Shown here in pieces: positions 1 to 12,523 of a DNA stretch of 12,523 nt. The stretch covers positions 1-12,523 of the IMG/VR virus record IMGVR_UViG_2541047958_000002, one strand, 5' to 3'. The notes beneath the pieces were generated by a model. It made no database searches and was not told where the DNA came from. It worked only from the letters and a program-made list of their open reading frames with translations. This stretch comes from a virus. Taxonomy: Duplodnaviria; Heunggongvirae; Uroviricota; Caudoviricetes. The translations under genes were made by a program, and so were the position numbers. The first letter of the stretch is position 1; each line of letters opens with the position of its first letter.

Positions 1-216
1 TTATTGGTTATCCGCTTTAGAAGCATTGACCTGATCTTCCCATGATGCGATCTCAGATTCCCGCCAGCGCTTAGGGTTGCCGGGAATCGTTGGTTTAGGG
101 AAGGGGCAGGTGAAGCTCGAAGGCATGCGCGCCGGTGTACTCCAAAAGTACAGCGTACTCCGGGAAATTTTGTATCGAGCCAGGATGTCACTGGTAAACA
201 AGATGCCGTCATTCAT
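1..216 (-). CDS. alpA: AlpA-family phage transcriptional regulator / excisionase-like DNA-binding protein (71 aa)
   Basis: Complete minus-strand ORF (stop at 1-3, ATG at 214-216). The product has an 'ISRSTLYFW' HTH-like segment and an 'FPKP...RWRESEI..WE' tail that match my recollection of AlpA/Phage_AlpA proteins. A GGAG lies about 9 nt upstream of the ATG on the minus strand. Family assignment is from memory, not a search. Confidence 0.7.
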   Translation of the reverse strand: MNDGILFTSDILARYKISRSTLYFWSTPARMPSSFTCPFPKPTIPGNPKRWRESEIASWEDQVNASKADNQ

Positions 217-233
217 TATTCTTTACTCCAGGC

Positions 234-260
234 AAAAAAATGCCCTCGCAATGGAGGGCA
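234..260 (-). terminator. Intrinsic terminator-like hairpin in the alpA 5' region (minus strand)
   Basis: Plus strand reads A7 (234-240) then TGCCCTC-gcaatg-GAGGGCA (241-260). On the minus strand this is a 7-bp GC-rich stem with a 6-nt loop followed directly by seven U. It sits 18-44 nt upstream of the alpA start codon. Confidence 0.5.
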
Positions 261-362
261 AATGGGGGATAACGTGGCAGTGCATTCGCACCCAATATCC
301 CATGCTTTGTCGATACCGATGTTTCTGGCGACGTTCGTGCTGTCAGCTGAAGATAGCGGGAT

Positions 363-899
363 GTGGCGGAATATGTCGGCGTTCAACATGCGCAGGCCGT
401 GAAGCTTTGTTATCGGATAGCAGACCTGTACGGCTTAACCTCACCAACTGGCAGCGAAACATCATTCACTTTCGACGCTGTTGAAGCTCGTGATTTCATT
501 GATGGCGGTTGGTCATGCCAGGAGTACGTGGAGCTTGAACGCTTTCAGGAAGCGATAACCAACCATACCGGTGACTCCAACAATATGGTTGAACCTGTAA
601 CGACGGCTTACAAATTGCCAGATGATTTTATTTGCATGCTTACTGGTAGAGCTAAATATCTTCGAGAAAAAGGAGAGATCAAATCACCTGAGCTTTTGGA
701 GCGAGCCGCTGCCGCGCTTCAGGGGGAAAGCGTTAATACCTCCTCCATTCCTAATGGATGGAAACTCGTTCCGATTGACCCAACAAAAGATATGTTGCGT
801 GCGGGGCAATCGGTGGTTGGGTTCTGGCTGAATACAGTGCATTGCTACTCGAAAATGCTCGCCGCTGCACCAGCAGCACCGCGGCAGGAGGTGAAGTGA
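363..899 (+). CDS. Hypothetical phage protein (up to 178 aa; start uncertain)
   Basis: Longest plus-strand ORF in this interval and co-directional with the downstream genes. The first start is GTG at 363; the in-frame ATG at 586 (MVEPVTT...) is an alternative. No family recognised. A terminator follows at 936-958. Confidence 0.45.
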   Translation: MAEYVGVQHAQAVKLCYRIADLYGLTSPTGSETSFTFDAVEARDFIDGGWSCQEYVELERFQEAITNHTGDSNNMVEPVTTAYKLPDDFICMLTGRAKYLREKGEIKSPELLERAAAALQGESVNTSSIPNGWKLVPIDPTKDMLRAGQSVVGFWLNTVHCYSKMLAAAPAAPRQEVK

Positions 900-935
900 C
901 GAACAAGATGACGAGAGTTACCATAGATATAAATC

Positions 936-958
936 AAGGCCCTTAGGGGCCTTTTATT
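936..958 (+). terminator. Rho-independent terminator downstream of the 363-899 ORF
   Basis: AAGGCCC-ttag-GGGCCTT stem-loop (936-953) running into TTTTATT (952-958). Confidence 0.6.
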
Positions 959-992
959 CTATGATAAACGGACTTTGTTTGAGAGTGACGCC

Positions 993-1319
993 ATGAAGCC
1001 CAAGAAGCTAAATGCTGAGCAGCAATACAAATTAGACCTTGAATTGGTCAAGAAGAAGCCTGCGAACCGGACCGAGGCAAAAGCCCATTTGGCCGCACAG
1101 TTACGGATCAGCAAGTACAAGACGCAGACCTCTTCCAAAATCCGCGTAGGCAGTTTTAAGGGGCGGAAGAAGGTACATTTCAGTAAGGCGGAACAAGCAG
1201 CCAGGGCAGCACTAAATAAAGCAAATGCCATTAGATTTTCCGAAGGGGAGGTCGAGTCCGTCGATACGGATAGAATCTCAGAAAGTAACAAACGCTGGCG
1301 CGGGAGAACTGCTGACTAA
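993..1319 (+). CDS. Hypothetical lysine-rich small protein (108 aa)
   Basis: ORF 975..1319 in the track begins at TTG; the ATG at 993 ([11 protein letters not shown]...) is the more plausible start. Basic, Lys/Ala-rich composition. Its stop overlaps the next start (TAATG at 1317-1321). Confidence 0.5.
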
Positions 1320-1573
1320 TGTCTGACTGGAATATTGCTGCAAAGCCGCAGGAAGAACGCGACAAGGTTAATGTTGACCTGGCAGCCTCCGGCGTGGCCT
1401 ACAAAGAGCGCCTGAATATGCCGGTTATCGCCGAGCAGGTAGCTCGTGAGCAACCAGAGCATCTACGAGAGTATTTCATGGATCGCGTGCGGCACTATCG
1501 CGAGCAGAGCGTTGCATTGCCTAAGGCATCTGATCCTCGCTACATTGAAATGACTGAGCAAAATGCAAAATAA
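1319..1573 (+). CDS. Hypothetical small protein (84 aa)
   Basis: ATG at 1319 overlaps the upstream stop (translational coupling). No overlapping ORF on the opposite strand is better. No family recognised. Confidence 0.5.
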
Positions 1574-1589
1574 ATTTCAGGAGATTCAA

Positions 1590-1850
1590 ATGGAAAATAG
1601 CATGAGCATCACAACGATTCTTGAAAGAGAAAGGGAGCTTGATGATCTTGTTAAGGTGTGCCTCGATGAGCTTGAGGTGATTGACATCCATGGACAGGTT
1701 TACTCAATTCCTCTTTCCCACCTAACGAACGCAGAGCAGGTGGTACATTGGGTCTGGAAGATTGCTGAGAGAGGTGATTTCGCCATGGATGTTGTTCGTA
1801 AATTTACTGAAGTTGCGTCCCATCATGTGGGGTTTGACGCTAAAAAATAA
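1590..1850 (+). CDS. Hypothetical small protein (86 aa)
   Basis: ORF 1563..1850 in the track; the internal ATG at 1590 is preceded by AGGAG (1578-1582) with about 7-nt spacing. No family recognised. Confidence 0.5.
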   Translation: MENSMSITTILERERELDDLVKVCLDELEVIDIHGQVYSIPLSHLTNAEQVVHWVWKIAERGDFAMDVVRKFTEVASHHVGFDAKK

Positions 1851-1920
1851 ATCGCCAAGGACCGATTTAATAGCTATACACATGTTTTACATTCCGCTCG
1901 CATCTTAACCAAATCTTTCT

Positions 1921-1929
1921 TGGTATAAT
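1921..1929 (+). promoter_or_regulatory. Candidate extended -10 promoter element (TGgTATAAT) upstream of the zinc-ribbon gene
   Basis: TGGTATAAT at 1921-1929 matches the extended -10 consensus TGnTATAAT. There is no convincing -35 at 16-18 bp, which is acceptable for extended -10 promoters. It lies about 40 nt upstream of the ATG at 1969. Confidence 0.4.
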
Positions 1930-1968
1930 GATTTTTTACAGGCGAATGACGTGTGAGGTCCGGGATTT

Positions 1969-2166
1969 ATGACTTGTGAAGTATGTAACAAACAACCCCT
2001 TGGACGAAGGGACCCGCCTCTTCCATGCATGGTCTTGCAAGGCGATAAATCCGTTAACTTCAGCCATCACGGACGCGAAGCAAACGAGCGTTATTACAAA
2101 TGCTCGGAATGCGGTCATGAGTGGATGAGAGAGACAGGAAATTGCGGCGAAGGCTGGATTCCTTAA
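1969..2166 (+). CDS. Small zinc-ribbon protein (65 aa), possibly an Ogr/Delta-like zinc-finger regulator
   Basis: ORF with GAGG about 10 nt upstream of the ATG. Cys pairs CEVC (res 3-6) and CSEC (res 45-48), with an 'ERYYKC' context before the second pair that resembles the 'ERYHQC' of P2 Ogr as I recall it. The spacing between pairs differs from Ogr, so the family call is tentative. Confidence 0.45.
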   Translation: MTCEVCNKQPLGRRDPPLPCMVLQGDKSVNFSHHGREANERYYKCSECGHEWMRETGNCGEGWIP

Positions 2167-2190
2167 CTATATATTGTCGCTATTCGCAAA

Positions 2191-2219
2191 TTGATTTTCT
2201 CAAATCATCCCGCCATAAT
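2191..2219 (+). promoter_or_regulatory. Candidate sigma70 promoter (-35 TTGATT, 17-bp spacer, -10 CATAAT)
   Basis: TTGATT at 2191-2196 and CATAAT at 2214-2219 with a 17-bp spacer. It would start a transcript running through the dyad elements at 2245-2343 into the ORF at 2370. Confidence 0.3.
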
Positions 2220-2244
2220 TAAGTCGCAGTCGGCCTGAACACCC

Positions 2245-2291
2245 GATTGTGACTTCTGCGCATTTAAGGGGACTTAAATGCGACCACAATC
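2245..2291. promoter_or_regulatory. 47-bp imperfect palindrome (nested inverted repeats) in the leader
   Basis: Outer arms GATTGTG (2245-2251) / CACAATC (2285-2291); inner 10-bp arms CGCATTTAAG (2259-2268) / CTTAAATGCG (2273-2282) around a 4-nt centre GGGA. No T-tract follows, so it is not a canonical terminator. It may be an operator or an RNA structure. Confidence 0.35.
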
Positions 2292-2313
2292 TGAAATCCT
2301 CACCTTGTCACAG

Positions 2314-2343
2314 ATGCAGAAATGCACCTGCGATTTTCTGCAT
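2314..2343. promoter_or_regulatory. Second dyad-symmetry element (9-bp arms, 12-bp spacer) just upstream of the RBS
   Basis: ATGCAGAAA (2314-2322) and its reverse complement TTTCTGCAT (2335-2343), separated by 12 nt. It ends 16 nt before the AGGAGG at 2360-2365. Confidence 0.35.
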
Positions 2344-2369
2344 TCTGCGGTTTCCGTTAAGGAGGCCGT

Positions 2370-2768
2370 ATGACTCTTCCAGTATCGGAGTATGGGAACG
2401 TCAATCACTGGTTGGCAAATGGTGGCGGCTGGTTCTTCAATCTCGACTATGACAAAGAAGTGCTGGCTAAGGCTCTGGTTCACAAAGCAGCTGAGCTGCC
2501 ACTCGTCATCGAGCTGGTTACCGCTGAGCGTAAAATCGTTATCTGCCACGCTGACTACCCGCATAACGAATATGCGTTCGATAAGCCCATCCCGAAAGAT
2601 ATGGTCATCTGGAATCGTGAGAGGGTTAAGTCCTGGCAGTTATACGTCAAGACAGTGGACATCGATGCTGACTCCGCGTCGGTCACTCTGTCCGTCACCA
2701 ACCCGCTGAACAACAACATCGGAAGGCTCTATGACCCAACGGAATATACCGGCCTGCAGTACCTCTGA
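2370..2768 (+). CDS. Lambda-type Ser/Thr protein phosphatase (PPase/PrpA family) homolog, N-terminally truncated and C-terminally divergent (132 aa); probable remnant
   Basis: Residues about 8-88 ('[22 protein letters not shown]...ELPLVIELV...VICHADYP...VIWNRER') match the middle of lambda phosphatase / E. coli PrpA as I recall them. The upstream GDxHG, GDxxDRG and GNHE metal-binding motifs are absent: the frame is closed by a TAA at 2358-2360 and there is no room upstream. The C-terminus lacks the GH motif. A strong AGGAGG (2360-2365) sits 4 nt before the ATG. Confidence 0.6.
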
Positions 2769-3147
2769 TTTTGCTCGGAAGGTGATCGGCGTGCCGTGGG
2801 CTAACCGGGCCTGCTCGTTCGATAGGGTCGACTGCTGGGGCTTGTGCGTGCTGTATTACCGGCACGTTCTCGGCATTGAACTGCACCAGACGCCGGACTA
2901 CGAAGCCGGTGAGGACTTCTTCACCTGCTATCAAAGTGATGTCGTTTTCTGGCACCCGGTGGATAAGCCGGTCGAGGGCGGGATATTCGTCGGGTACCGC
3001 GGCGCGCAACCGGCGCATGTTGGCCTGGTACTGAACCGGCAGGCGCTGCACTCGCGCGGCGAGAACGGAAGCGTACGCATGGACTCGTTGCTGGTCATTC
3101 AGCGGGCATTCACCAAAGTGGAGTTTTTCGAATATGGCGCTGGTTGA
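2731..3147 (+). CDS. NlpC/P60-family peptidase domain protein, phage tail protein K-like (138 aa; start uncertain)
   Basis: Contains 'DCWGL' (catalytic-Cys context of NlpC/P60, cf. DCSGL) and a later 'HVGLV' His motif. It overlaps the upstream ORF by 38 nt if the ATG at 2731 is used; GTG at 2791 preceded by GAAGGTGA is an alternative start. It is shorter than typical K proteins and has no JAB/MPN region. Confidence 0.55.
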
Positions 3148-5611
3148 GATATCGAATTTTCCAGGAACGCCTAAGCTGCGTTGCAGGGTGCCAAACGGCA
3201 CCCTTTTTTATGACTGGCTGGCGGCCAATGATGGTAACTTTCACCGCGATCTGCTGATCGTCCGCAACGGCGTAAAGTTGGGCGAAGATGATGAGCTGGC
3301 GTTTGAGCTATGCGAACTGGACACCGTCCAGATATTCGACCAGCCGAAGGGCATCATTGGCGACATTCTCAGCCCGATCTTCAAAGTTGTCGGCGCGGTA
3401 TTCTCTTTCCTTGCGCCAAAGCCGGCGATCGCCAATACAGGCGGCAACACGATTGACTCGCCAAACAATAGCCTGACCGGCCAGACGAATACGGCGCGCG
3501 TCTACAAAGCAAAACCGGACATCTACGGACAAATCCGTTCGTTCCCGGACCTGATTCAGGAGTCGCTTTTCGAATACGTGCGCCAGAGCGACACGGATGG
3601 CGGCCTGAAGTACGTTACTGAGTGGATGTGCATCGGGATCGGCAAATATGATTACGAGTCTGTGCGTTATTCAGAGTCCAGCCTAGGAAGTATGGCCGGT
3701 GCAGAGTTCCAGTTTTACCAGCCGGGTGAAGTGATCCCTACCATCAACGAAGGCTACGGGTTCGACGACGTGGATGGCCAGGAAGTGCCCGGGCAAAACG
3801 AATCGGATAATTTCCCGATCGAGACTGCTACGGCTACTACGGTTGTGAGCGGAACTTACTCCGGCGGGCAGATTGCGGTAAAAATTATCAAGCAGGCTGA
3901 GTTTGATTACTTCATGGGCCTGGTCCTGCCGCACGCCGTTACTTTTACGATTAACGTCACCTACAGCACGCCAACCGGCAACGTAACGCAGGATGTCGAT
4001 TTCTCCGGCACGCTGATATCGGCTGTCGAAACAAACGACGGCGCGGTGGTTAACCCGGTCCGGTGGTACACATTCACGATGAGGGATCTAATTGGCCCTC
4101 CTGACGTGCCGGCAACGGCGACTATTAACACGACGAAGTTCATCCTTAACGATAACGAAGCGCTAGTGGTAGGCCCGTTCTTCTCGCCGGTCGAATCTGC
4201 CCAGTTATGGCTGCACACTCAGGTGCAGCTGGGCGGCAAAAAGTCCGCTGACTGGAAGGTCACGATCTGGAAAATTGACGATTACTACAACCAGGTGCCG
4301 GGTACTCAGCAGACGTTCACGTATCATCAGGGGACGCCGCACAAATCATCGAGCGAAGTATTTTACCGTACCGATAAGCTGACGCCGACCGGCGGTTTCG
4401 GCAAGTACGCTATTAACTTCCAGCGCACAGATAACTCGAGTGATGCCTCTATCCTGAAGGTTGAGGAGATCCACTCGGTCAACGTCAGAACCAACGTCGT
4501 GCATCCAACCGATACGCTGGTGCGCGTGAAGGTAAGGGCGACGGAGAACGCCCTGGGCAGCCGTGACCGCAAGTACAACGCACTGGTGACGCGTCAGACC
4601 ATCAGTTACAACCTGACGACGCAATCGGTGGATTACACCCTGCGGGCCTCGCGCTCGTTCGCTGATGCAGTGGCGCATACCTGGCTGATTATGGGCGAGC
4701 AGCCGGTAAGTAGCATTGACCTGTACGGGCTGTACTCGATTGCCGAAAGTCTGCCGGATGAGCGCCTGGGTTACTTCGACTACACGTTTGACGACGAGAA
4801 CGATTCGTTGGGCGACAGGGTGCAGGCTATCTGCAATGCGGCCTCTGTCATTGCGTACTGGGACGATGGCGTGCTGACGTTTACTCGCGATCAGAAGGTT
4901 GAGTACCCGGCGGCCGTATTCAACCGGGCCAATATGAAGACGGACGAGTACAAAATGACGTACGAAGCCACTCTTCCTGGCGGCTATGACGGCGTGCAGG
5001 TGTCCTACGTTCATCCGACAACCAACAACAAGACGTACATCAACTACCGCGTGCTGAACGGCGCTATCGTCGAGCAGGAAGCGGAGAACCCGAACAAAAT
5101 CGATATAGTCGGCTTCCGTAACGAGTATCAGGCGCGGGAACGCGCGCTGCGCGAAACGAAGCGCCTTATCTACTCCCGGGTGAAGATGAACGCCAAAGTG
5201 TTTGAGGACGGGATCATGCAGGTCGGTAGCGTCGTGCAGATAGCGGATATCTACGACAGCAACCAGCAGCAGGGATACATCACAGGCCGCGCCGGGAATA
5301 GCTTTGATACAAGCGAGCCAATCGCGTTTACCGGCTCGATGTATGTCCTGGTGACCGACAGCCTGGGCAACCCGACTCTGCGCTATCCGGCGACGGCACG
5401 CGCCGACACGAAGTACGGATTCACCGCGGCAATACCCGACATTCAACTTAATATCTGGAACGGAGACACCGTGCAGCTCCCGTCGCGCTACCTCATAGCA
5501 ACGGTGGAGGAGCTGAACAGCCAACTATGGACGGTCAATAGCATCAAGCCGAACACAGATAACACGGTATCTCTGACCGTCGCGGAATACAGCGACGCCA
5601 TCTACCAATAA
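3134..5611 (+). CDS. Phage tail tip / host-specificity protein (825 aa) with a tail-assembly-protein-I-like N-terminal region and a J-like central region
   Basis: Long ORF whose ATG overlaps the upstream stop. The N-terminal about 150 aa ('...FLAPKPAIANTGGNTIDSP...YGQIR') resembles lambda gpI as recalled. Later segments ('DRVQAICNAASVIAYWDDGVLTFTRDQ', 'GFRNEYQARERALRETKRLIYSRVK...VGSVVQIADIYD') resemble conserved blocks of lambda host-specificity protein J. Codon composition matches the flanking genes. Confidence 0.75.
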   Translation: MALVEISNFPGTPKLRCRVPNGTLFYDWLAANDGNFHRDLLIVRNGVKLGEDDELAFELCELDTVQIFDQPKGIIGDILSPIFKVVGAVFSFLAPKPAIANTGGNTIDSPNNSLTGQTNTARVYKAKPDIYGQIRSFPDLIQESLFEYVRQSDTDGGLKYVTEWMCIGIGKYDYESVRYSESSLGSMAGAEFQFYQPGEVIPTINEGYGFDDVDGQEVPGQNESDNFPIETATATTVVSGTYSGGQIAVKIIKQAEFDYFMGLVLPHAVTFTINVTYSTPTGNVTQDVDFSGTLISAVETNDGAVVNPVRWYTFTMRDLIGPPDVPATATINTTKFILNDNEALVVGPFFSPVESAQLWLHTQVQLGGKKSADWKVTIWKIDDYYNQVPGTQQTFTYHQGTPHKSSSEVFYRTDKLTPTGGFGKYAINFQRTDNSSDASILKVEEIHSVNVRTNVVHPTDTLVRVKVRATENALGSRDRKYNALVTRQTISYNLTTQSVDYTLRASRSFADAVAHTWLIMGEQPVSSIDLYGLYSIAESLPDERLGYFDYTFDDENDSLGDRVQAICNAASVIAYWDDGVLTFTRDQKVEYPAAVFNRANMKTDEYKMTYEATLPGGYDGVQVSYVHPTTNNKTYINYRVLNGAIVEQEAENPNKIDIVGFRNEYQARERALRETKRLIYSRVKMNAKVFEDGIMQVGSVVQIADIYDSNQQQGYITGRAGNSFDTSEPIAFTGSMYVLVTDSLGNPTLRYPATARADTKYGFTAAIPDIQLNIWNGDTVQLPSRYLIATVEELNSQLWTVNSIKPNTDNTVSLTVAEYSDAIYQ

Positions 5612-5632
5612 GAACCGTCCCCGACCAACCAG

Positions 5633-5658
5633 ACCCGGCCACCGTGCCGGGTTTTTTT
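5633..5658 (+). terminator. Rho-independent terminator between the tail-tip gene and the tail-fiber gene
   Basis: ACCCGGC-caccgt-GCCGGGT stem (5633-5652) followed by seven T (5652-5658). The T-tract ends 11 nt before the ATG at 5670. Confidence 0.75.
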
Positions 5659-5669
5659 ATGGAATCAAT

Positions 5670-8102
5670 ATGGCTACGCAACCTACAAACTTGCCTGTTC
5701 CAAGCGAATCACCACGCGACCTGAAGTTCAACGCCGGGAAAATTGATGAATTTGTAACTTCCCTGGCTGAATGGTATGTGGACCGCTTCGGAATAAAGCA
5801 TTACACCATCGAAGGACTGAAGAATCTGGTACTGCAGCAGATTTATAATCTCGGCTGGAATCCGGTTGGAACATTCCAGGGCGGTGCAACTCTGACAGCG
5901 GCTGGTGACATCATCCAGGACACAAGCACGGGTGTATGGTATCGCTGGGATAACCTGGCAACACTGCCTAAAGTTGTTCCTGCTGGCTCAACTCCTGCAT
6001 CATCTGGTGGGATCGGAGAAGGTAAGTGGCTCGCCGTTGATGTGAGTGATGTGCTTAGAAAGGAGCTGGCTGAACCTGGTGGTGCTGGCATGATGGGTTA
6101 TGACGACTTTGAGTCTTATCAGGATGGTACTGTTGGCAGTGCCATTAAGGATCAGAACTTCAGAAAAAAAATAATCTACAAACTTCCATTTCAGTTCACT
6201 GGGTATTCTGATGCACTGGCGGCAATTGGAGCTGGAAGCATCATATACCCGCAGGGTGCTGACTATGATGATGATGGTCTACTCTTCATTAACTATGTGC
6301 CTAATGCTGGAGGGTCGCTTAGGGTAATAGTTGTTTATAACCAGGCAGGAGAGCAAGTAACGTGGTTTTATAGTCCAAACAGTAGTAATCAGTCTGTGGC
6401 TATATATGGCGGAAGCTCATCACGTAGATTGTATGACAGACGTCTTGGGGATGATTTTGTTTATTATTATGACATAACCACATTACCCGCAGCAGGTAGC
6501 ACGCTTTCAGGGCACACAATAACGACAATTCAGTCGGCTGGATCACATATGTGCATTGAGGGTAATTTACTCTTCTGCACATTAAACGCGACACCGATAG
6601 GAACATCGCAGTCGCAGACGGTTGTAAATTCGTACCGTGTTGATACTGGTGAGAAGCAGGGAACTATAAATGTCTCCCAGATGTTGACAGGGTTTGCAAC
6701 TCCAGAGCTTTCGCCAACCTACTATTACAGGGTATGGAAAATTCAAGGTTTGGCATACAAGAATGGAATCCTCCATATTGGGGTTGGTGGGAGCTATCGC
6801 CCTACATTAGATGATGCAAAATATCCTGTGCATGATTACGGCGTCCTCCGAGTGTCACTCTCTGGTGAGTTAATAGACCACTCTGTTGTGAAATCAGATA
6901 AGTTGATGACATATCTGGCATCAAACGGTTGCACCGTCTCAAGAACAGAGTCAGAGGGATGTTTCAAGCACCCTGACGGCACTATCCATTCAATTCTTAT
7001 TGGTGATATGGCTGAATCATCTCCTAGCACACCCAATGGCATTGTTATAATGAGGGAGTTTTCACGGGATGGATTTAACATGCTGGATGCCGCTTCCGGA
7101 TATTGTCCTCTCCCAACGTATGGATTTAATCGACTTATGCGATCTGAGCAGGGGGCATTGTGCGATCCCGTATTAAACACAGTATTTAGTAGCGTAACTC
7201 AGATTCTTGATTTAATGGCTTCATTAAACTTAACTGAGTTCTCATGGTTTTCAACCATAGCACCTTCACTAACCACAATACCCGGCCTTAATTACGTAAT
7301 AGGACAAATCTACCATGTTACCAATCTTAACAATGGAGGATTTGTTATTGAATCTTCTGGTACTGCGCTTGGGATGGAAGTGTATAGCGTAGTTGGAAGT
7401 CTTGGATCATGGACTGCTACAAGGCGTTCCATTTCAGGTTCAAAGATTAATATTAATAATGCAGGTAGCTTAGGACAAATTTCATTTACAGCATCTACAG
7501 GTAAAGAAGTTGGTATTGCCCAAATAAGCTATACAGGGACTTCTACACCTCTTGTTATCGGCTCTGGAGGAACTTTAAACCCTAATGCTATTTTCTTCTT
7601 CACAAATCCGACAGTGACAAGTGAAAGTGGGGGAACTCAATCTTTTCAGATTTACAATAATCAGGTACTACCTGGCGTCTCTAGCGCGCAGTCTAACGGG
7701 AGTGCGTCATTTAAATGGACTCAGTTCTACGCCGATTCTGGTTCCATTAACACATCTGACAGAAGGAAGAAGACAGATTTCGAGGATATAAGTGAAGCCG
7801 AAAAGCGTGTAGCTATCAAGATTAAGGGAATGATTTGTCGGTACAGAATGAAGGATGCGGTAGCTATTAAAGGCGATGGCGCAAGATATCATATAGGTGC
7901 AATTGTTCAGGATGTTATCTCTGCGTTCGAGGATGAAGGACTAGACCCCATGCTTTACGGTATGGTTTGTTATGATAAGTGGGATAAGAAGGAACCAATA
8001 TATGATGAAAATGGTGCTATGATATTCTCAGGTTGCGAAGCCGGTGATGGTTACTCTTTAAGATATGATGAGATGTTATGTTTCATTATCTCAGCCATTT
8101 GA
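5670..8102 (+). CDS. Tail fiber / tailspike protein (810 aa) with a C-terminal intramolecular chaperone (peptidase S74-type) self-cleaving domain
   Basis: The N-terminal about 150 aa carry a 'YRWDNLATLPKVVPAGSTPASSGGIGEGKW' block that I recall from endosialidase-type and related tail fibers. The C-terminal about 115 aa ('TSDRRKK...ARYHIGAIVQDVISAF...MVCYDKW') match the Ser-x4-Lys autoproteolytic chaperone domain. The central 500 aa are unassigned and AT-rich. Confidence 0.85.
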   Translation: MATQPTNLPVPSESPRDLKFNAGKIDEFVTSLAEWYVDRFGIKHYTIEGLKNLVLQQIYNLGWNPVGTFQGGATLTAAGDIIQDTSTGVWYRWDNLATLPKVVPAGSTPASSGGIGEGKWLAVDVSDVLRKELAEPGGAGMMGYDDFESYQDGTVGSAIKDQNFRKKIIYKLPFQFTGYSDALAAIGAGSIIYPQGADYDDDGLLFINYVPNAGGSLRVIVVYNQAGEQVTWFYSPNSSNQSVAIYGGSSSRRLYDRRLGDDFVYYYDITTLPAAGSTLSGHTITTIQSAGSHMCIEGNLLFCTLNATPIGTSQSQTVVNSYRVDTGEKQGTINVSQMLTGFATPELSPTYYYRVWKIQGLAYKNGILHIGVGGSYRPTLDDAKYPVHDYGVLRVSLSGELIDHSVVKSDKLMTYLASNGCTVSRTESEGCFKHPDGTIHSILIGDMAESSPSTPNGIVIMREFSRDGFNMLDAASGYCPLPTYGFNRLMRSEQGALCDPVLNTVFSSVTQILDLMASLNLTEFSWFSTIAPSLTTIPGLNYVIGQIYHVTNLNNGGFVIESSGTALGMEVYSVVGSLGSWTATRRSISGSKININNAGSLGQISFTASTGKEVGIAQISYTGTSTPLVIGSGGTLNPNAIFFFTNPTVTSESGGTQSFQIYNNQVLPGVSSAQSNGSASFKWTQFYADSGSINTSDRRKKTDFEDISEAEKRVAIKIKGMICRYRMKDAVAIKGDGARYHIGAIVQDVISAFEDEGLDPMLYGMVCYDKWDKKEPIYDENGAMIFSGCEAGDGYSLRYDEMLCFIISAI

Positions 8103-8302
8103 AAAATAACGATGACCTTCCAATGTTAAAACATTGATTTGTGCTGTTTTTTATTCATTGTTGCAAGGTCATTGTATATTATTTGAATGGGTTTAGACTC
8201 TAGTATTTCGAATTGTTTAATGGTTTTAACTAATCATGAGTATGGATGGCAACAGCAAAATCGTGTTAGGATAGGAAAAAATCGATTTCAGGACTCAAAT
8301 CA

Positions 8303-8336
8303 ATGAATGACTCACTTCAATGACTCACTTCAATGG
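8303..8336 (+). repeat. Tandem 13-bp direct repeat (ATGACTCACTTCA x2, with partial flanking copies)
   Basis: ATGA / ATGACTCACTTCA (8307-8319) / ATGACTCACTTCA (8320-8332) / ATGG. The unit length is not a multiple of 3, so successive ATGs fall in all three frames. Confidence 0.6.
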
Positions 8337-8498
8337 CTAACTCGAATTGTTGGCGTATATTGTCTGATAGATATGATAATGATTCTGTTGGGTATCAACG
8401 AGTGGTCGAAGTGGGTCATTTTCTCAAATTGCATCATGATTGCTATATGGGGATGGTCTGAGCGTAACAATTACAGGGGCTCAAGTAATGGAGAGTGA
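8307..8498 (+). CDS. Hypothetical small hydrophobic protein (63 aa, two predicted transmembrane segments)
   Basis: ORF in AT-rich DNA where chance ORFs are rarer. Hydrophobic stretches 'IVGVYCLIDMIMILLGI' and 'WVIFSNCIMIAIWGW'. Its ATG is the first copy of the 13-bp repeat. The RBS is weak. Speculative. Confidence 0.3.
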   Translation: MTHFNDSLQWLTRIVGVYCLIDMIMILLGINEWSKWVIFSNCIMIAIWGWSERNNYRGSSNGE

Positions 8499-8709
8499 AG
8501 AGTTTTTAGCTAGCCTCAAGCCTGGAGAAAAATGGTTGGCTGAAGGGGTGGTAAGAAGTAGAAAAGAAGGTGCCTGGAGTGTTATCCGTATATCTGATAA
8601 CGATAGCCAATGGGAGGCTACCTTCATGGGAAGAACATTGCCGGTGCTTTTCAGATCTAAAGAGTTGGCACTAATCGCTTTACTTGAACTATCTGTATGC
8701 CACGACTAA
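8488..8709 (+). CDS. Hypothetical small protein (73 aa)
   Basis: ORF 8440..8709 in the track begins at TTG; the internal ATG at 8488 is preceded by AGGGG (8475-8479). Its stop is followed by the bidirectional terminator. No family recognised. Confidence 0.4.
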   Translation: MESEEFLASLKPGEKWLAEGVVRSRKEGAWSVIRISDNDSQWEATFMGRTLPVLFRSKELALIALLELSVCHD

Positions 8710-8711
8710 AA

Positions 8712-8731
8712 GCGGCGTAAATTTACGCCGC
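8712..8731. terminator. Bidirectional intrinsic terminator between convergent genes
   Basis: Perfect 20-nt palindrome GCGGCGTAAATTTACGCCGC (8712-8731). It lies 3 nt after the plus-strand stop (8707-8709) and 8 nt after the minus-strand stop (8739-8741). A/T runs flank both sides; the U-tract is better on the minus strand. Confidence 0.55.
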
Positions 8732-8738
8732 ATAAATA

Positions 8739-9710
8739 TTAGACTACTCTTCGCAAAATCGGTATTGCAGTAAATATTTTGACAATGATAATTGAAGATG
8801 CAATGTAAAATACTGCCGCCAGAGGAATGCCCCATACATAATTTGTAATTGGCAGGTACTTCCATGAAGTGAAAATAATTAATGGGTGAACTAGGTAGAT
8901 GCCAAATGCATGCTTTGAAATTATTTTTATTATTGGGTTTGTTAAGTTAGATATGTTCTTAGCATAACCAATGCAAGCAAATGTCGTAGCTATCGCCGTA
9001 ATGGCTATAATCGGGCTGAAGTTCTTCAAGCTCATTCCTTGATATTCGCCATGAACTATCCCTTTGTTAACATAAATGGTAATAACGGAAAGTGTCAATG
9101 ATAGGATAGCAAATACAATTCTGTTCTTAATTATCAAGTCTTCCTTACGTGCAGCTATGTATCCTGCAAAAACATAGAGCATTAAATAACTTGCAAATGG
9201 AACGCTTATCTTTGGAACGGGTATTCCTATTGCATTAAGCTCCGGGTATAAGGATGTGCTGTAAAACAGAATTGCGAATATCAATAGGCTATAGCGTGTT
9301 CTTATCTCTCTACATCCCATAACTATCATTGGAACAAAAAGATAAATTGCAATGTAATCGTACATAAACCAAAGGTGTATGCTTGATGGTTTCATAGGGC
9401 TAAAACTATCTATGCCTGCATTTTTAAAAATTATCAAATATGCTGCGTAAATTATCCACCAAAACGCCAGTGGAATTACAAGGAGATTTATTCCTTTAAG
9501 GATGAAGCCTTCGAATTCAATTTTTTTGTTAGCATAGAGAAAGCCGGTTATGACAATGAATATACCAATGCATTGTTTCGAAATTGCACTATAAACATTG
9601 GCCCACTCCCAGTCAGGCGCGAGTTTGGCCCCAACAGGCCCGGCGCTGGCATGCAGTAGAACTACCAATATTATTGCTATGAAACGTGCAAAGACCACTC
9701 CATAATTCAT
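8739..9710 (-). CDS. Integral-membrane acyltransferase, acyltransferase-3 (AT3) family, probable polysaccharide O-acetyltransferase (323 aa)
   Basis: Minus-strand ORF with GGAG 7-8 nt upstream of the ATG. Strongly hydrophobic multi-pass protein with an N-terminal 'FARFIAIILVVLLHA' motif typical of AT3 proteins (cf. 'LRAIAVLxVVxFH'). AT-rich codon usage. Confidence 0.8.
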   Translation of the reverse strand: MNYGVVFARFIAIILVVLLHASAGPVGAKLAPDWEWANVYSAISKQCIGIFIVITGFLYANKKIEFEGFILKGINLLVIPLAFWWIIYAAYLIIFKNAGIDSFSPMKPSSIHLWFMYDYIAIYLFVPMIVMGCREIRTRYSLLIFAILFYSTSLYPELNAIGIPVPKISVPFASYLMLYVFAGYIAARKEDLIIKNRIVFAILSLTLSVITIYVNKGIVHGEYQGMSLKNFSPIIAITAIATTFACIGYAKNISNLTNPIIKIISKHAFGIYLVHPLIIFTSWKYLPITNYVWGIPLAAVFYIASSIIIVKIFTAIPILRRVV

Positions 9711-9753
9711 GAATGTCTCCAGTTGACGGGCTTACGCCCGTCTTAGTTGATTA

Positions 9754-11712
9754 TTATTTATTAAGCACACTTAAGATCTTATCTTTAAATCCGTTCACTG
9801 CCATCTGTGAGCCATCTTTTGATAAATGCCCCCCATCTGAATACATGATTTTGTCATTGAATATTGAACGGCAGGTTCCGTTAGAACAAAACACTTCATA
9901 CGGGTCCATGTAGTAAGTATTTCTCATTGACTGGGCAGCCTTCTTTAACATCTGATTTAGTTTGTACGAGTGAGCAGTTCTCTCTCTTACATTCAATTGT
10001 TCAGAACACGGACCTGTCGCAAATGATGGTCTAGTGATACAAGCCACCACACCATTTTTATCGCCAACCCGAGGAGGAGAACCGATAATAATCAAAGGCC
10101 TTCCTCCTGTGTCTTTTCTTAGTAACTTAAGTTGCTCGATAACATATGAATAATATTCATCTTTATCCTTAAAGATGATTTTTTCGCCAGTTTTACGGTT
10201 GGTAAGAACATCTTTTGATGTATCCCAAGAGTGCGAAATAATGAGAGGCTTACTGTTACCTTTAAGCAAGTTGTACAAGTTGCCATATTGCCCGGAGCAT
10301 AGATTGTCCGGCCCGGTCCCTGGCGTTCGGATTGAGTCTCTGCTTATTAAGCACCCATGAGCAAACAAGGTGTCAGCTTTAATATGGTTATCTTTAAAGA
10401 AATTATCCAGGCCATATGCATACTGATTGGCATAACTATCGCCAGCCACTATTACTGATGATTCCTTTACATTTAAATCACCTATTGTTTTTTTGTAGCC
10501 ATAATCGTGACCACCATATTGCTCAAAGTGATATTGGCCTGCATTCTCGGCCAAGGTTACGTATTTTTCATTAACACGCCATGTCATGCCGTTACTTTCA
10601 TAGGAGTATTTTCCTGCGAAAATCAAGATGGCAATGATTGAACCTACGCACGAATATACAGTAACAATTTTAAATTTATCGAGTTTAACGTTATGGAGTC
10701 GGAATGTTTTCTCAATACAGTAAAACGTGATCAGGGAAAAAATTGCTGTGATTATTATCATGGCAATTTTATCAATGATATCTGGCGTAGTTGCAATATA
10801 GTAGTTATAAAAAACTATCACGGGCCAATGTACAAGATACAAAGAGTAACTGATTAACCCTATGTATATGGCAACTTTGTTATCTGTTACAACTGAAACT
10901 TTAGCATTGCCAGCGTAAATGGCCATGCCCGCGCCAATACATGGGATTAATGCCATTACACCTGGGAATTGAGTTGTTTCATTGTACATAAACATGCTGA
11001 TAATAATAATTGCTATACCAGTCATGTATAGTACATTAAGAATCATACCTTTTGGCTGTTTTAATCTTTCAAGGAATACGACTATAGCCCCAACAGCAAA
11101 TTCGAATGCTCTGGATGTTGTTAGAAAATATGACTTATTAGAATCTGAAGGTAGTAGTGATTGTGAGTAAATAATGCTCACTACAAACATTATACTGATT
11201 ATAGCGATAATGCCATTTTTTGATTTTAATTTGTACGCCAACGTTAACAATAAAGGCCATACGAGATAGAATTGCTCTTCGACAGACAAAGACCATGTAT
11301 GTAGCAATGGTTTTGTGATTGATGAAGCGTCAAAGTAGTCACTACTTAACCAAAAGAAGAAGTTTGATAAAGAAATGACTGCAAATATGAGAGACTTTCC
11401 AAAATCAATCATTTGCTGCGGTGAAAATAAGAGCATGGCAGCAATTAAGCTCAGAGCACTTACAAAAAATAACGCTGGAAGAAGCCGCAATGCACGACGG
11501 GTATAAAATTGACCAAAAGTAAAAGCGTTTGATTCAAGTTGCCCAGTAATATTTCTGGTTATCAAATAGCCGCTGATAACAAAGAAAACGTCTACGCCAA
11601 CGAAACCACCAGGGAAGCTAAGCCCTATGTGGAAGAAAATCACGCCAAGGACGGCTATTGCACGTAATCCGTCAATGTCTCCACGATACTTTTTTGCGAC
11701 AACTAAGTTCAC
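9754..11712 (-). CDS. OafA-like O-acetyltransferase: N-terminal AT3 membrane domain fused to a C-terminal SGNH hydrolase-like domain (652 aa)
   Basis: Minus-strand ORF with a GTG start. The N-terminus 'DIDGLRAIAVLGVIFFHIG...VGVDVFFVISGYLIT...TWSLSVEEQFY' matches AT3 signature blocks as recalled for Salmonella OafA. The C-terminal soluble domain has SGNH-like blocks ('VAGDSYANQ', 'DGGHLS'). It sits 43 nt upstream of the 323-aa AT3 gene on the same strand, so the two are likely an operon. Confidence 0.85.
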   Translation of the reverse strand: MNLVVAKKYRGDIDGLRAIAVLGVIFFHIGLSFPGGFVGVDVFFVISGYLITRNITGQLESNAFTFGQFYTRRALRLLPALFFVSALSLIAAMLLFSPQQMIDFGKSLIFAVISLSNFFFWLSSDYFDASSITKPLLHTWSLSVEEQFYLVWPLLLTLAYKLKSKNGIIAIISIMFVVSIIYSQSLLPSDSNKSYFLTTSRAFEFAVGAIVVFLERLKQPKGMILNVLYMTGIAIIIISMFMYNETTQFPGVMALIPCIGAGMAIYAGNAKVSVVTDNKVAIYIGLISYSLYLVHWPVIVFYNYYIATTPDIIDKIAMIIITAIFSLITFYCIEKTFRLHNVKLDKFKIVTVYSCVGSIIAILIFAGKYSYESNGMTWRVNEKYVTLAENAGQYHFEQYGGHDYGYKKTIGDLNVKESSVIVAGDSYANQYAYGLDNFFKDNHIKADTLFAHGCLISRDSIRTPGTGPDNLCSGQYGNLYNLLKGNSKPLIISHSWDTSKDVLTNRKTGEKIIFKDKDEYYSYVIEQLKLLRKDTGGRPLIIIGSPPRVGDKNGVVACITRPSFATGPCSEQLNVRERTAHSYKLNQMLKKAAQSMRNTYYMDPYEVFCSNGTCRSIFNDKIMYSDGGHLSKDGSQMAVNGFKDKILSVLNK

Positions 11713-11825
11713 GAGAGAAGCCTACTAAAGTTAAAACGCGCATTTTAGTAGCTATCAGGACATGAAAAAAGAGAAAACTAGTAAATTATCAATAAACTAT
11801 ATCTACGTTCCTGAGCGAATGTGTT

Positions 11826-11834
11826 GGTGATCAC
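11826..11834. promoter_or_regulatory. GGTGATCAC palindromic motif, copy 1 (contains a Dam GATC site)
   Basis: Exact 9-mer containing the 8-bp perfect palindrome GTGATCAC. It sits in the divergent control region between the acyltransferase operon and the LexA-box promoter. Confidence 0.3.
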
Positions 11835-11882
11835 AAAACATGAGCAACTAATACAATTGTTTGCAATCCTTCAGACACATAA

Positions 11883-11891
11883 GGTGATCAC
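11883..11891. promoter_or_regulatory. GGTGATCAC palindromic motif, copy 2 (contains a Dam GATC site)
   Basis: Identical 9-mer 57 bp from copy 1, with similar A-rich 3' flanks (aaaaca / ggaaaaa). Confidence 0.3.
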
Positions 11892-11929
11892 GGAAAAATA
11901 GTATTGCCATAATTTAGAGGATAGATGTG

Positions 11930-11945
11930 CTGTATTTATATACAG
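11930..11945. promoter_or_regulatory. LexA (SOS) box, CTGT-N8-ACAG
   Basis: CTGTATTTATATACAG matches the E. coli LexA consensus CTGTATATATATACAG at 15 of 16 positions. It overlaps a candidate -10 (TATATA 11937-11942); TTTAGA at 11913-11918 is a possible -35. A T7 run follows. Confidence 0.6.
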
Positions 11946-11979
11946 TTTTTTTGGGGCTATATGCCGCATCGTTCAAATA

Positions 11980-12201
11980 TTGAGATCGCCTTCATGGGCC
12001 TCGATTGTGCATGAAAGGTCAGGCCGCAGGATTGTGAAAACTGCTGATTTTGTTCAGGAACTTCTAAAGGTCAGCTGGGACTTCAGCATGGAAGAGGCGA
12101 ACCTTTGGATAGCAAGGTACACAACCTGCTTCAAAGACATCACTCCTGATCACGGGGAGAACAAAACCTGGTTCATGTACAACCCGAATGGAGGGCTTTG
12201 A
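11980..12201 (+). CDS. Hypothetical small protein (73 aa; start uncertain, TTG in the track)
   Basis: ORF lying between the LexA box and the UmuD'-like ORF. Its stop (12199-12201) is 1 nt from the next ATG. No canonical ATG start with an RBS was found, so the call is weak. Confidence 0.3.
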   Translation: MRSPSWASIVHERSGRRIVKTADFVQELLKVSWDFSMEEANLWIARYTTCFKDITPDHGENKTWFMYNPNGGL

Positions 12202-12202
12202 T

Positions 12203-12523
12203 ATGGGGTTCCCAAGTCCAGCAAGGGATTACATCGAAAGTAAGCTTAATGTGAATGTTATATGCGGAGTCACCACTAACAGCCTAGTGATTGAGACATC
12301 GCAAGGATTTGCTGTGATAGAAAAGGGCATGAAGCCATCGCCAGACAGTACCTACCTGATTTCGTATTCAGGAGGTTGTCACTTTGCCAAACGTAGAGGC
12401 GATGCGCTGATAACGATAGATGGTGAAGTACTTGAAGGAGAGGTTCTGGATGAGGTGGATGTGAAGGGAATTCTGACCTACCTGATTAACCGGGCGGTGG
12501 ATGATGATAACCCGGTGATTTAA
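12203..12523 (+). CDS. UmuD'-like protein (S24 LexA/UmuD superfamily), beginning at the GFPSPA cleavage-site motif (106 aa; track ORF starts at 12188)
   Basis: The ATG at 12203 is preceded by GGAGGG (12190-12195). The product starts 'MGFPSPARDYIE', matching the 'C/GFPSPAxDY' auto-cleavage junction of UmuD/MucA. Downstream blocks 'STYLISYSGGCH' and 'RRGDALITIDGEV' align loosely with 'ATYFVKASGDSM' and 'HGDIVIAAVDGEF' of UmuD. The protein is shorter than UmuD. The stop is at the window end. Confidence 0.5.
   Translation: MGFPSPARDYIESKLNVNVICGVTTNSLVIETSQGFAVIEKGMKPSPDSTYLISYSGGCHFAKRRGDALITIDGEVLEGEVLDEVDVKGILTYLINRAVDDDNPVI

Follow-up and report, generated by a model that had tools for sequence, protein, structure and literature searches.

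A LexA box and a shortened HumD-type gene at the right end of a lambdoid prophage

The DNA analysed here (the window) is a stretch of 12,523 nucleotides from the Caudoviricetes record IMGVR_UViG_2541047958_000002 of IMG/VR (positions 1 to 12,523), which represents the right end of a lambdoid prophage beside the Escherichia coli gene yciB. The prophage ends in a short cassette that consists of a near-consensus LexA box, a frameshifted gene of a conserved 79-amino acid (aa) family (ORF1) and an intact gene (ORF2) for a 106-aa protein of the UmuD' type, here termed mini-HumD. Taking all analyses together, the best explanation would be a LexA-regulated cassette of the HumD type, whose ready-made UmuD' surrogate serves the UmuC protein of the host. 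We hold this explanation with moderate confidence: the protein has a strongly diverged core and is missing the region around Ser60, and the winged-helix partner encoded by ORF1 is not found in phages P1 and N15.

The HumD-type protein encoded by ORF2

ORF2 spans positions 12203–12523 on the plus strand, and its stop codon (12521–12523) is the last triplet of the window. Direct reading reveals a Shine–Dalgarno sequence, GGAGG, at 12190–12194 on the same strand, 8 nt upstream of the ATG and inside the end of ORF1. The gene opens with ATG GGG TTC CCA AGT CCA GCA (MGFPSPA) and its product begins MGFPSPARDYIE, in agreement with the original prediction of a UmuD-like ORF that starts exactly at GFPSPA. 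UmuD itself gains this N-terminus only via RecA*-stimulated cleavage at Cys24/Gly25. Since methionine aminopeptidase removes the initiator methionine when the second residue is glycine, the mature N-terminus of ORF2 would be GFPSPA. The start is kept throughout the family: MGFP is present in 27 out of 27 aligned members and SPA.DY is nearly invariant, down to an identity of 38%.

Profile comparisons relate the entire protein to UmuD-like proteins. Residues 1–105 of ORF2 match positions 1–105 of the 106 positions in phrog_3469 ('UmuD-like protein') with an E-value of 7.2e-41 and 139 bits. Furthermore, a profile of the ORF2 family aligns over residues 1–106 with positions 1–129 of a HumD profile (hhalign, 98.4%, E 7.8e-15) that comprises the HumD proteins of P1, N15, HK140 and M171. 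The beta fold of the LexA/UmuD C-terminal domain (S24 fold) was recovered for ORF2; in an AlphaFold2 model based on the family alignment (pLDDT 72), the beta core is confident and the N-terminal arm is of low confidence. These comparisons bear out the proposal that ORF2 encodes a UmuD'-type protein truncated from the outset and comparable to P1 HumD.

Curated family models draw a boundary around this assignment. No Pfam family matched ORF2 even at E <= 10, so that the gathering threshold of Peptidase_S24 (PF00717) is missed, whereas full-size HumD relatives pass it (P1 with 36 bits, M171 with 28 bits). The NCBIfam model for HumD (NF051876, cut-off 120 bits) gave 28 bits for ORF2 and covered residues 1–23 only, compared to 164.8 bits for the HumD of M171. 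Within the UmuD family, the sequence of ORF2 places it in the HumD branch, as a diverged member of reduced length. Because it fails the curated thresholds for HumD and Peptidase_S24 and is without the catalytic dyad, we count it among the variants of the HumD kind rather than assigning it to the HumD equivalog.

ORF2 is under strong purifying selection, with dN/dS ratios between 0.035 and 0.12 (0.035 in the comparison with E. coli PK5). The length of the family is constant (105–107 aa), and an intact ORF2 of identical sequence occurs in at least 24 contigs. A megablast search of positions 11750–12523 against the phage collection gave no match; finding the relatives required tblastn.

The C-terminus of ORF2 carries the tail DDDNPVI (residues 100–106, window 12500–12520). 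HumD ends in a similar tail, EFDDCPVI, and UmuD has none. Of 65 members, 58 have a proline at position -3 or -2, 52 have two or more acidic residues within the last eight, and 60 end in a hydrophobic residue. Some relatives of ORF2 end in DDDIPIM, SDDYPF or VSDDSPF, variants that resemble the C-terminal tip of the single-stranded DNA-binding protein SSB, DDDIPF. The acidic-proline-hydrophobic tail may be a docking motif or a degron.

It had also been proposed that the catalytic serine is replaced by a cysteine, based on an alignment of SGGCH in ORF2 with SGDSM in UmuD. We rejected this alignment, as it is contradicted by hmmsearch, by two hhalign runs, by MAFFT and by the variability of the cysteine. 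In all four independent alignments, Cys59 (codon TGT at 12377–12379, plus strand) lies opposite UmuD E93 or F94, in the hairpin before K97, or opposite the HumD equivalent of these residues, and never opposite S60. The position is occupied by C, R, S, N, T or Q in the 27-member alignment, and 20 of the 52 scored members have a cysteine. Cys59 is thus a variable hairpin residue.

For the region of Ser60 itself, two solutions were obtained. In the hmmsearch against PDB and in hhalign against UmuD, G35-F36-A37 stands opposite G58-D59-S60, so that Ser60 corresponds to Ala37. In the MAFFT alignment with HumD and UmuD' and in hhalign against the HumD profile, about 11 residues (SGDSMIDGGIS in UmuD) are deleted and GFAVIE is aligned to the next strand, DLLIVD. 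The deletion fits the predicted strand order better. K63 may be equivalent to UmuD K97, yet this position is K, R, Y or G across the family. The Ser-Lys dyad (S60/K97 in UmuD) is absent from ORF2, and the protein has lost the nucleophile altogether. Full-size HumD relatives are patchy in this respect: P1 retains Ser and Lys, whereas N15 and HK140 carry Thr and M171 carries Ala and Met. Such a pattern is expected of proteins that no longer need self-cleavage.

A related core was seen in a different context. The 141-aa orphan P0054 (L029:2958-3383), which adjoins acnA, combines a UmuD-like cleavable leader (..FIRPAELREI..LFSDSMQC/GFTSPAADY) with a mini-HumD-type core that lacks the Ser loop. Neither a LexA box nor a umuC is obvious at this locus; the protein has a divergent C-terminus and looks like a truncated orphan. 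P0054 is probably a recombinant of a umuD and a prophage mini-HumD.

The LexA box and the partner gene ORF1

The LexA box TGCTGTATTTATATACAGTT is a 20-mer at positions 11928–11947, to which no strand is assigned. Its core CTGTATTTATATACAG (11930–11945) follows the pattern CTGT-N8-ACAG with an AT-rich spacer, as in Gammaproteobacterial boxes. The bare pattern occurs once in the window, with 0.15 occurrences expected and at least one in 29 of 200 shuffles, so that it is not rare alone. With a position weight matrix (PWM), the full 20-mer scores 26.7 bits, which is in the top range of the 18 canonical E. coli boxes from which the matrix was made; the matrix is approximate, as these boxes come from the literature rather than from a database. 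Best scores in 300 first-order Markov simulations of the window centred on a median of 11.0 bits and did not exceed 19.0 bits.

The box is also conserved. A box of 18–26.5 bits precedes the first cassette gene by 12–24 nt in 10 of the 10 related loci examined (E. coli prophages, mEp390, Flotzy, HK140, Cronobacter phiES15, Erwinia Midgardsormr38, Pantoea AH07, P1 humD and N15 gene 26), and the box of the window matches better than those of PK5 and M171. In the GenBank record of P1, the equivalent site is annotated as the LexA binding site for lxr and humD. As the score exceeds the simulations, the box is kept at all ten loci and the P1 site is annotated, the near-consensus SOS box that had been predicted is real and conserved.

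The promoter is less clear-cut. A probable -35 hexamer, TTGCCA, is located at 11904–11909 (plus strand) and aligns with TTGCCA of PK5 and TTGACA of M171. The probable -10 hexamer, TGTGCT, at 11926–11931 (plus strand) aligns with TATACT of PK5 and overlaps the left edge of the LexA box. It shares three of its six bases with TATAAT, the conserved A at the second position is gone, and it appears to be degraded in the lineage of the window. A promoter scan gave no sigma-70 match at the LexA box, did not call TTGCCA and found no terminator. We infer a promoter at the LexA box, which qualifies the earlier statement that the box overlaps a likely -10. Control by LexA, as originally suggested, is supported by the motif and its conservation; LexA itself would be predicted to bind here.

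The small ORF between the box and ORF2 had been described as unknown. It is present (ORF1, 11961–12201, plus strand); however, its frame is broken, and it is a pseudogene of a conserved 79-aa winged-helix family, phrog_3893. Intact homologues use the start codon equivalent to the ATG at 11961, and a Shine–Dalgarno-like GGGG (11953–11956, plus strand, by direct reading) lies 4 nt before it. Compared to PK5 and M171, ORF1 has an extra T at 11995 (TTCATGGGCC in the window, TTCA-GGGCC in the relatives), and this +1 frameshift ends the native frame at 12014 after 17 codons. The rest is listed as a 73-aa ORF from TTG 11980 to 12201, which matches phrog_3893 with an E-value of 5e-26. The T insertion is common to four independent assemblies with identical ORF2, which marks it as a real allele rather than a sequencing error. 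In a fifth assembly with identical ORF2 (L013:1-307), the sequence upstream of about codon 20 of ORF1 is replaced by what we take to be an IS1 end, which would be a second, independent inactivation of ORF1, its promoter and the LexA box.

Apart from these lesions, the 79-aa family looks like a regular partner of HumD-like genes. An AlphaFold2 model has winged-helix topology (pLDDT 87), and dN/dS of the repaired frame is 0.08–0.13. The stop codon of ORF1 (TGA, 12199–12201) ends 1 nt before the ATG of ORF2; in relatives, the ORF1 stop abuts or overlaps the start of the ORF2 homologue, as in TAATG of Flotzy. By this arrangement, members of the 79-aa family and HumD-like genes are coupled in translation, in many phages as well as on about 1,000 plasmids, mostly of the IncX3 type.

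Neither ORF1 nor ORF2 has a Pfam match, and PADLOC detected no significant match to a defence family, the best being a trypsin-like model for the Flotzy ORF1 (E 0.019). PGAP and UniRef call the 79-aa protein 'DNA polymerase V' (L001:15212-15451 and many RefSeq records). The name appears to be propagated from the neighbouring gene and is unsupported by the sequence or fold of the 79-aa protein. We also considered ORF1 as the ImpC of an impCAB operon and rejected this candidate: ImpC is DinI-like, in contrast to the winged helix of ORF1, and the plasmid matches of ORF1 fall into IncX3 cassettes rather than imp operons.

Distribution and possible function of the cassette

The gene order of the window recurs in related elements: a tail fibre gene is followed by dinI or by acyltransferase or gtr morons, the LexA box, the 79-aa ORF, the HumD-like gene and then attP/int or the chromosome. 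A SOS cassette of the HumD type, located between the tail-fibre/moron region and the attachment site, is common to many temperate enterobacterial phages. The pair of ORF1 and HumD-like gene is also found on 1,045 plasmid records, mostly conjugative IncX3 plasmids of about 46 kb. In the one IncX3 record examined, the blaNDM-type plasmid pHNGD64-NDM (L031:3400-4100), the cassette lies between ISKox3 and IS26; the right half of the LexA box (ATGCATACAG) alone is left beside ISKox3, and the HumD-like gene, annotated as 'S24 family peptidase', is truncated by IS26.

The locus resembles another type of phage SOS locus. Gifsy dinI-gfoA, 186 tum and N15 antC are small genes with a LexA box that lie outside the immunity region, near the tail-fibre end and dinI (PMC3121763), and the cassette shares all of these features. 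By analogy, it could be a LexA-controlled antirepressor module in which ORF2 or ORF1 binds the prophage repressor. We consider this very improbable and rejected the idea. In contrast to the hosts of gfoA, tum and antC, the cassette phage mEp390 has a cleavable CI, with an Ala-Gly site, the GDSM Ser, the KK Lys and 75 bits for Peptidase_S24; as this repressor is standard and self-cleaving, mEp390 needs no antirepressor. Moreover, the cassette is carried by conjugative IncX3 plasmids, on which there is no phage repressor, and the analogy, drawn from locus features, leaves the invariant UmuD'-specific arm GFPSPA.DY unexplained.

The original prediction placed any umuC-like partner beyond the end of the window. 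Extending the sequence to the right argues against this. In the contigs with identical ORF2 (at least 24), the stop codon of ORF2 is directly followed by the first 23 codons of a SRAP/YedK-like gene on the minus strand (L011:6331-6400) and then by the chromosomal genes yciB-yciC-ompW...trpA; a downstream umuC was thus rejected. The SRAP gene is intact in the strains M171 and CUPF12, and in phage relatives attP/int lies downstream of the HumD-like gene.

Taken together, we propose the following mechanism. LexA would bind 11928–11947 and repress a promoter with a -10 hexamer that reaches into the left half of the box. Upon DNA damage, the transcript would be made and translated into ORF2, with GFPSPA at its mature N-terminus after removal of the methionine. 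The protein has kept the N-terminal arm of UmuD' together with its core beta-strands and C-terminal strand; without the Ser60 loop, it would be no protease and would require no activation. Most likely, it would dimerise and replace UmuD' beside a host-encoded UmuC, as P1 HumD does, and the lysogen or phage would gain translesion synthesis that is independent of cleavage. Binding of LexA, the promoter, dimerisation and pairing with the host UmuC are putative steps of this scheme. ORF1 would normally be a co-translated 79-aa winged-helix partner; since it is frameshifted, only ORF2 would be made intact in the lineage of the window.

The proposal of a UmuD' surrogate builds on what is known from P1 HumD. 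HumD complements UmuD' (McLenigan et al. 1999, as cited in PMC11541004 and PMC4713147), and the GenBank record of P1 notes that it 'functionally complements E. coli UmuD''. ORF2 is similar to P1 HumD, N15 gp26 and phiKO2 gp23 in being a phage protein of the UmuD' type that is without a pro-segment and starts with MGFPSPA. In these relatives as in the cassette, a LexA box lies about 15–20 nt upstream, there is no umuC in cis, and the protein ends in a tail of the form ...DD.PV(I/L). The Shine–Dalgarno sequence of its own also counts in support. In contrast, HumD has 127–129 aa and passes Peptidase_S24 and NF051876; P1 HumD keeps Ser and Lys at the dyad, whereas ORF2 is about 11 residues shorter around Ser60. 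Furthermore, a 79-aa winged-helix gene does not precede humD in P1 or its counterpart in N15, and P1 has a divergent lxr instead.

Comparisons to other systems define the cassette further. Whereas E. coli UmuD' (PDB 1UMU) arises by RecA*-stimulated autocleavage, ORF2 would be made directly; it also differs from UmuD' in lacking Ser60, in an overall identity of about 15%, in the added acidic proline-hydrophobic tail and in the absence of a umuC operon. With the other members of phrog_3469 (mEp390 gp26 and the proteins of Flotzy, phiES15, Midgardsormr38 and Klebsiella prophages), ORF2 shares family, length, partner ORF, LexA box and genomic position. Identity to the phage members is 47–54%, and the copy in the window differs from theirs in its frameshifted partner and deleted prophage. 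Plasmid-borne operons of DNA polymerase V (Pol V), impCAB, mucAB and rumAB, are likewise LexA-regulated, carry a UmuD-like gene on a mobile element and are associated with DinI-like proteins; however, they encode a cleavable full-length UmuD homologue and a UmuC homologue, whereas the cassette is without a pro-segment or polymerase gene.

Several observations weigh against a UmuD' surrogate. No umuC in cis was found at any of the family loci examined, and the evidence that UmuD' can be complemented comes from P1 HumD, outside the 106-aa subfamily. With about 11 residues around Ser60 gone, any contacts that this region makes with UmuC or RecA would be lost. The near-constant winged-helix partner, which is not present in P1 and N15, hints at a somewhat different action. 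Finally, the weakened -10, the frameshifted ORF1 and the deleted prophage mean that the locus may be poorly expressed or decaying.

The absence of a cognate umuC from all loci examined would also be consistent with the main alternative, in which ORF2 modulates or inhibits the SOS response instead of serving as a Pol V subunit, either by forming a heterodimer with host UmuD or UmuD' or by competing for RecA*, UmuC or other UmuD partners. During induction, SOS mutagenesis or the checkpoint of the host would then be damped or redirected, with the winged-helix partner and DinI acting in the same pathway. Conservation is centred on the N-terminal arm and the C-terminal strand, and the catalytic cleft is deleted or diverged, as such a role would allow. 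Furthermore, a divergent phage dinI, whose product binds the RecA filament, shares the intergenic region with the LexA box in mEp390, Flotzy, HK140 and Enterobacter loci, and the tail that is common with HumD but not with UmuD suggests an extra docking function. However, P1 HumD, the closest characterised relative, promotes mutagenesis rather than inhibiting it, and we regard a modulator as unlikely. About equally tentative is the idea that mini-HumD and its coupled 79-aa partner are a distinct two-protein SOS effector instead of a Pol V subunit, which would dock via the arm and the SSB-tip-like tail onto replication or repair proteins of the host (RecA*, UmuD or SSB-interacting enzymes). If true, such an effector would reprogram the damage response of the host for the mobile element.

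Alternatively, the copy in the window could be a non-functional relic of a decaying prophage in which ORF2 is intact merely for want of time. This copy of the cassette is partly decayed: ORF1 carries the same T frameshift in four assemblies and IS1 in a fifth, the -10 reads TGTGCT compared to TATACT in PK5, and the neighbouring SRAP gene is cut to 23 codons. In addition, a fusion ORF of a NinI-like phosphatase and a minor tail protein, together with the abrupt beginning of tail homology at about 2626, points to a large internal deletion. On the other hand, ORF2 is not only intact but identical in at least 24 contigs and has a strong Shine–Dalgarno sequence of its own, and the LexA box is better than in PK5 or M171. 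The low dN/dS against PK5 (0.035) also speaks against a relic, though it reflects mostly the history before decay. Decay has to be reckoned with for this copy, yet we view a mere relic as doubtful.

LexA-regulated, pre-processed phage homologues of UmuD' have been known since P1 HumD, and the basic idea of a UmuD' surrogate is therefore not new. Mildly new are the minimal architecture without the loop and the conserved winged-helix partner. ORF2 is a natural, strongly conserved 'minimal UmuD'' without the protease loop; if it activated UmuC, it would define the parts of UmuD' that Pol V needs. The winged-helix partner of HumD-like genes is conserved, uncharacterised and mislabelled in public annotation. 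As the cassette travels without a polymerase gene, any effect on mutagenesis would depend on the UmuC of the host, which bears on SOS-driven mutation in lysogens and in bacteria that carry NDM-type IncX3 plasmids.

The prophage and neighbouring genes

At its right end, the prophage encodes a TipJ-like tail protein and a tail fibre or spike; two acyltransferase morons of the O-antigen acetylase type come next on the minus strand, before the cassette. The acyltransferase genes (8739–9710 and 9754–11712, both on the minus strand) are arranged in tandem between the tail fibre and the cassette. One of them encodes a 652-aa protein with Acyl_transf_3 and SGNH domains, of the O-antigen acetylase type (phrog_6705, E 2e-159). 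Relatives carry gtrA/gtrB-type genes, dinI, a reverse transcriptase or AbiGi at this site instead, which marks it as a moron or defence hotspot. On a Klebsiella pneumoniae chromosome (L016:2440-3924), a gene for a 494-aa reverse transcriptase (RVT_1) is located directly upstream of the cassette; the hotspot could here house either a defence-associated reverse transcriptase or a group II intron.

Further to the left, a chimeric ORF at 2370–2768 (plus strand) joins a NinI-like Ser/Thr phosphatase (residues 8–91) to the end of a minor tail protein (residues 87–132). Megablast homology to tail regions of E. coli prophages begins abruptly at 2626–2628, and this junction near 2626 has the look of a deletion scar: the lysis, head and most tail genes would have gone with a large internal deletion. 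The prophage would be defective because of this loss. Rfam and tRNA scans of the window found nothing. Lastly, an 84-aa ORF at 1319–1573 (plus strand) matches 'DNA polymerase III theta subunit' (phrog_1105, E 2e-41) and is a homologue of P1 Hot. In P1, hot adjoins lxr and humD, whereas the theta-like ORF of the window is about 10 kb away from the HumD-like gene.

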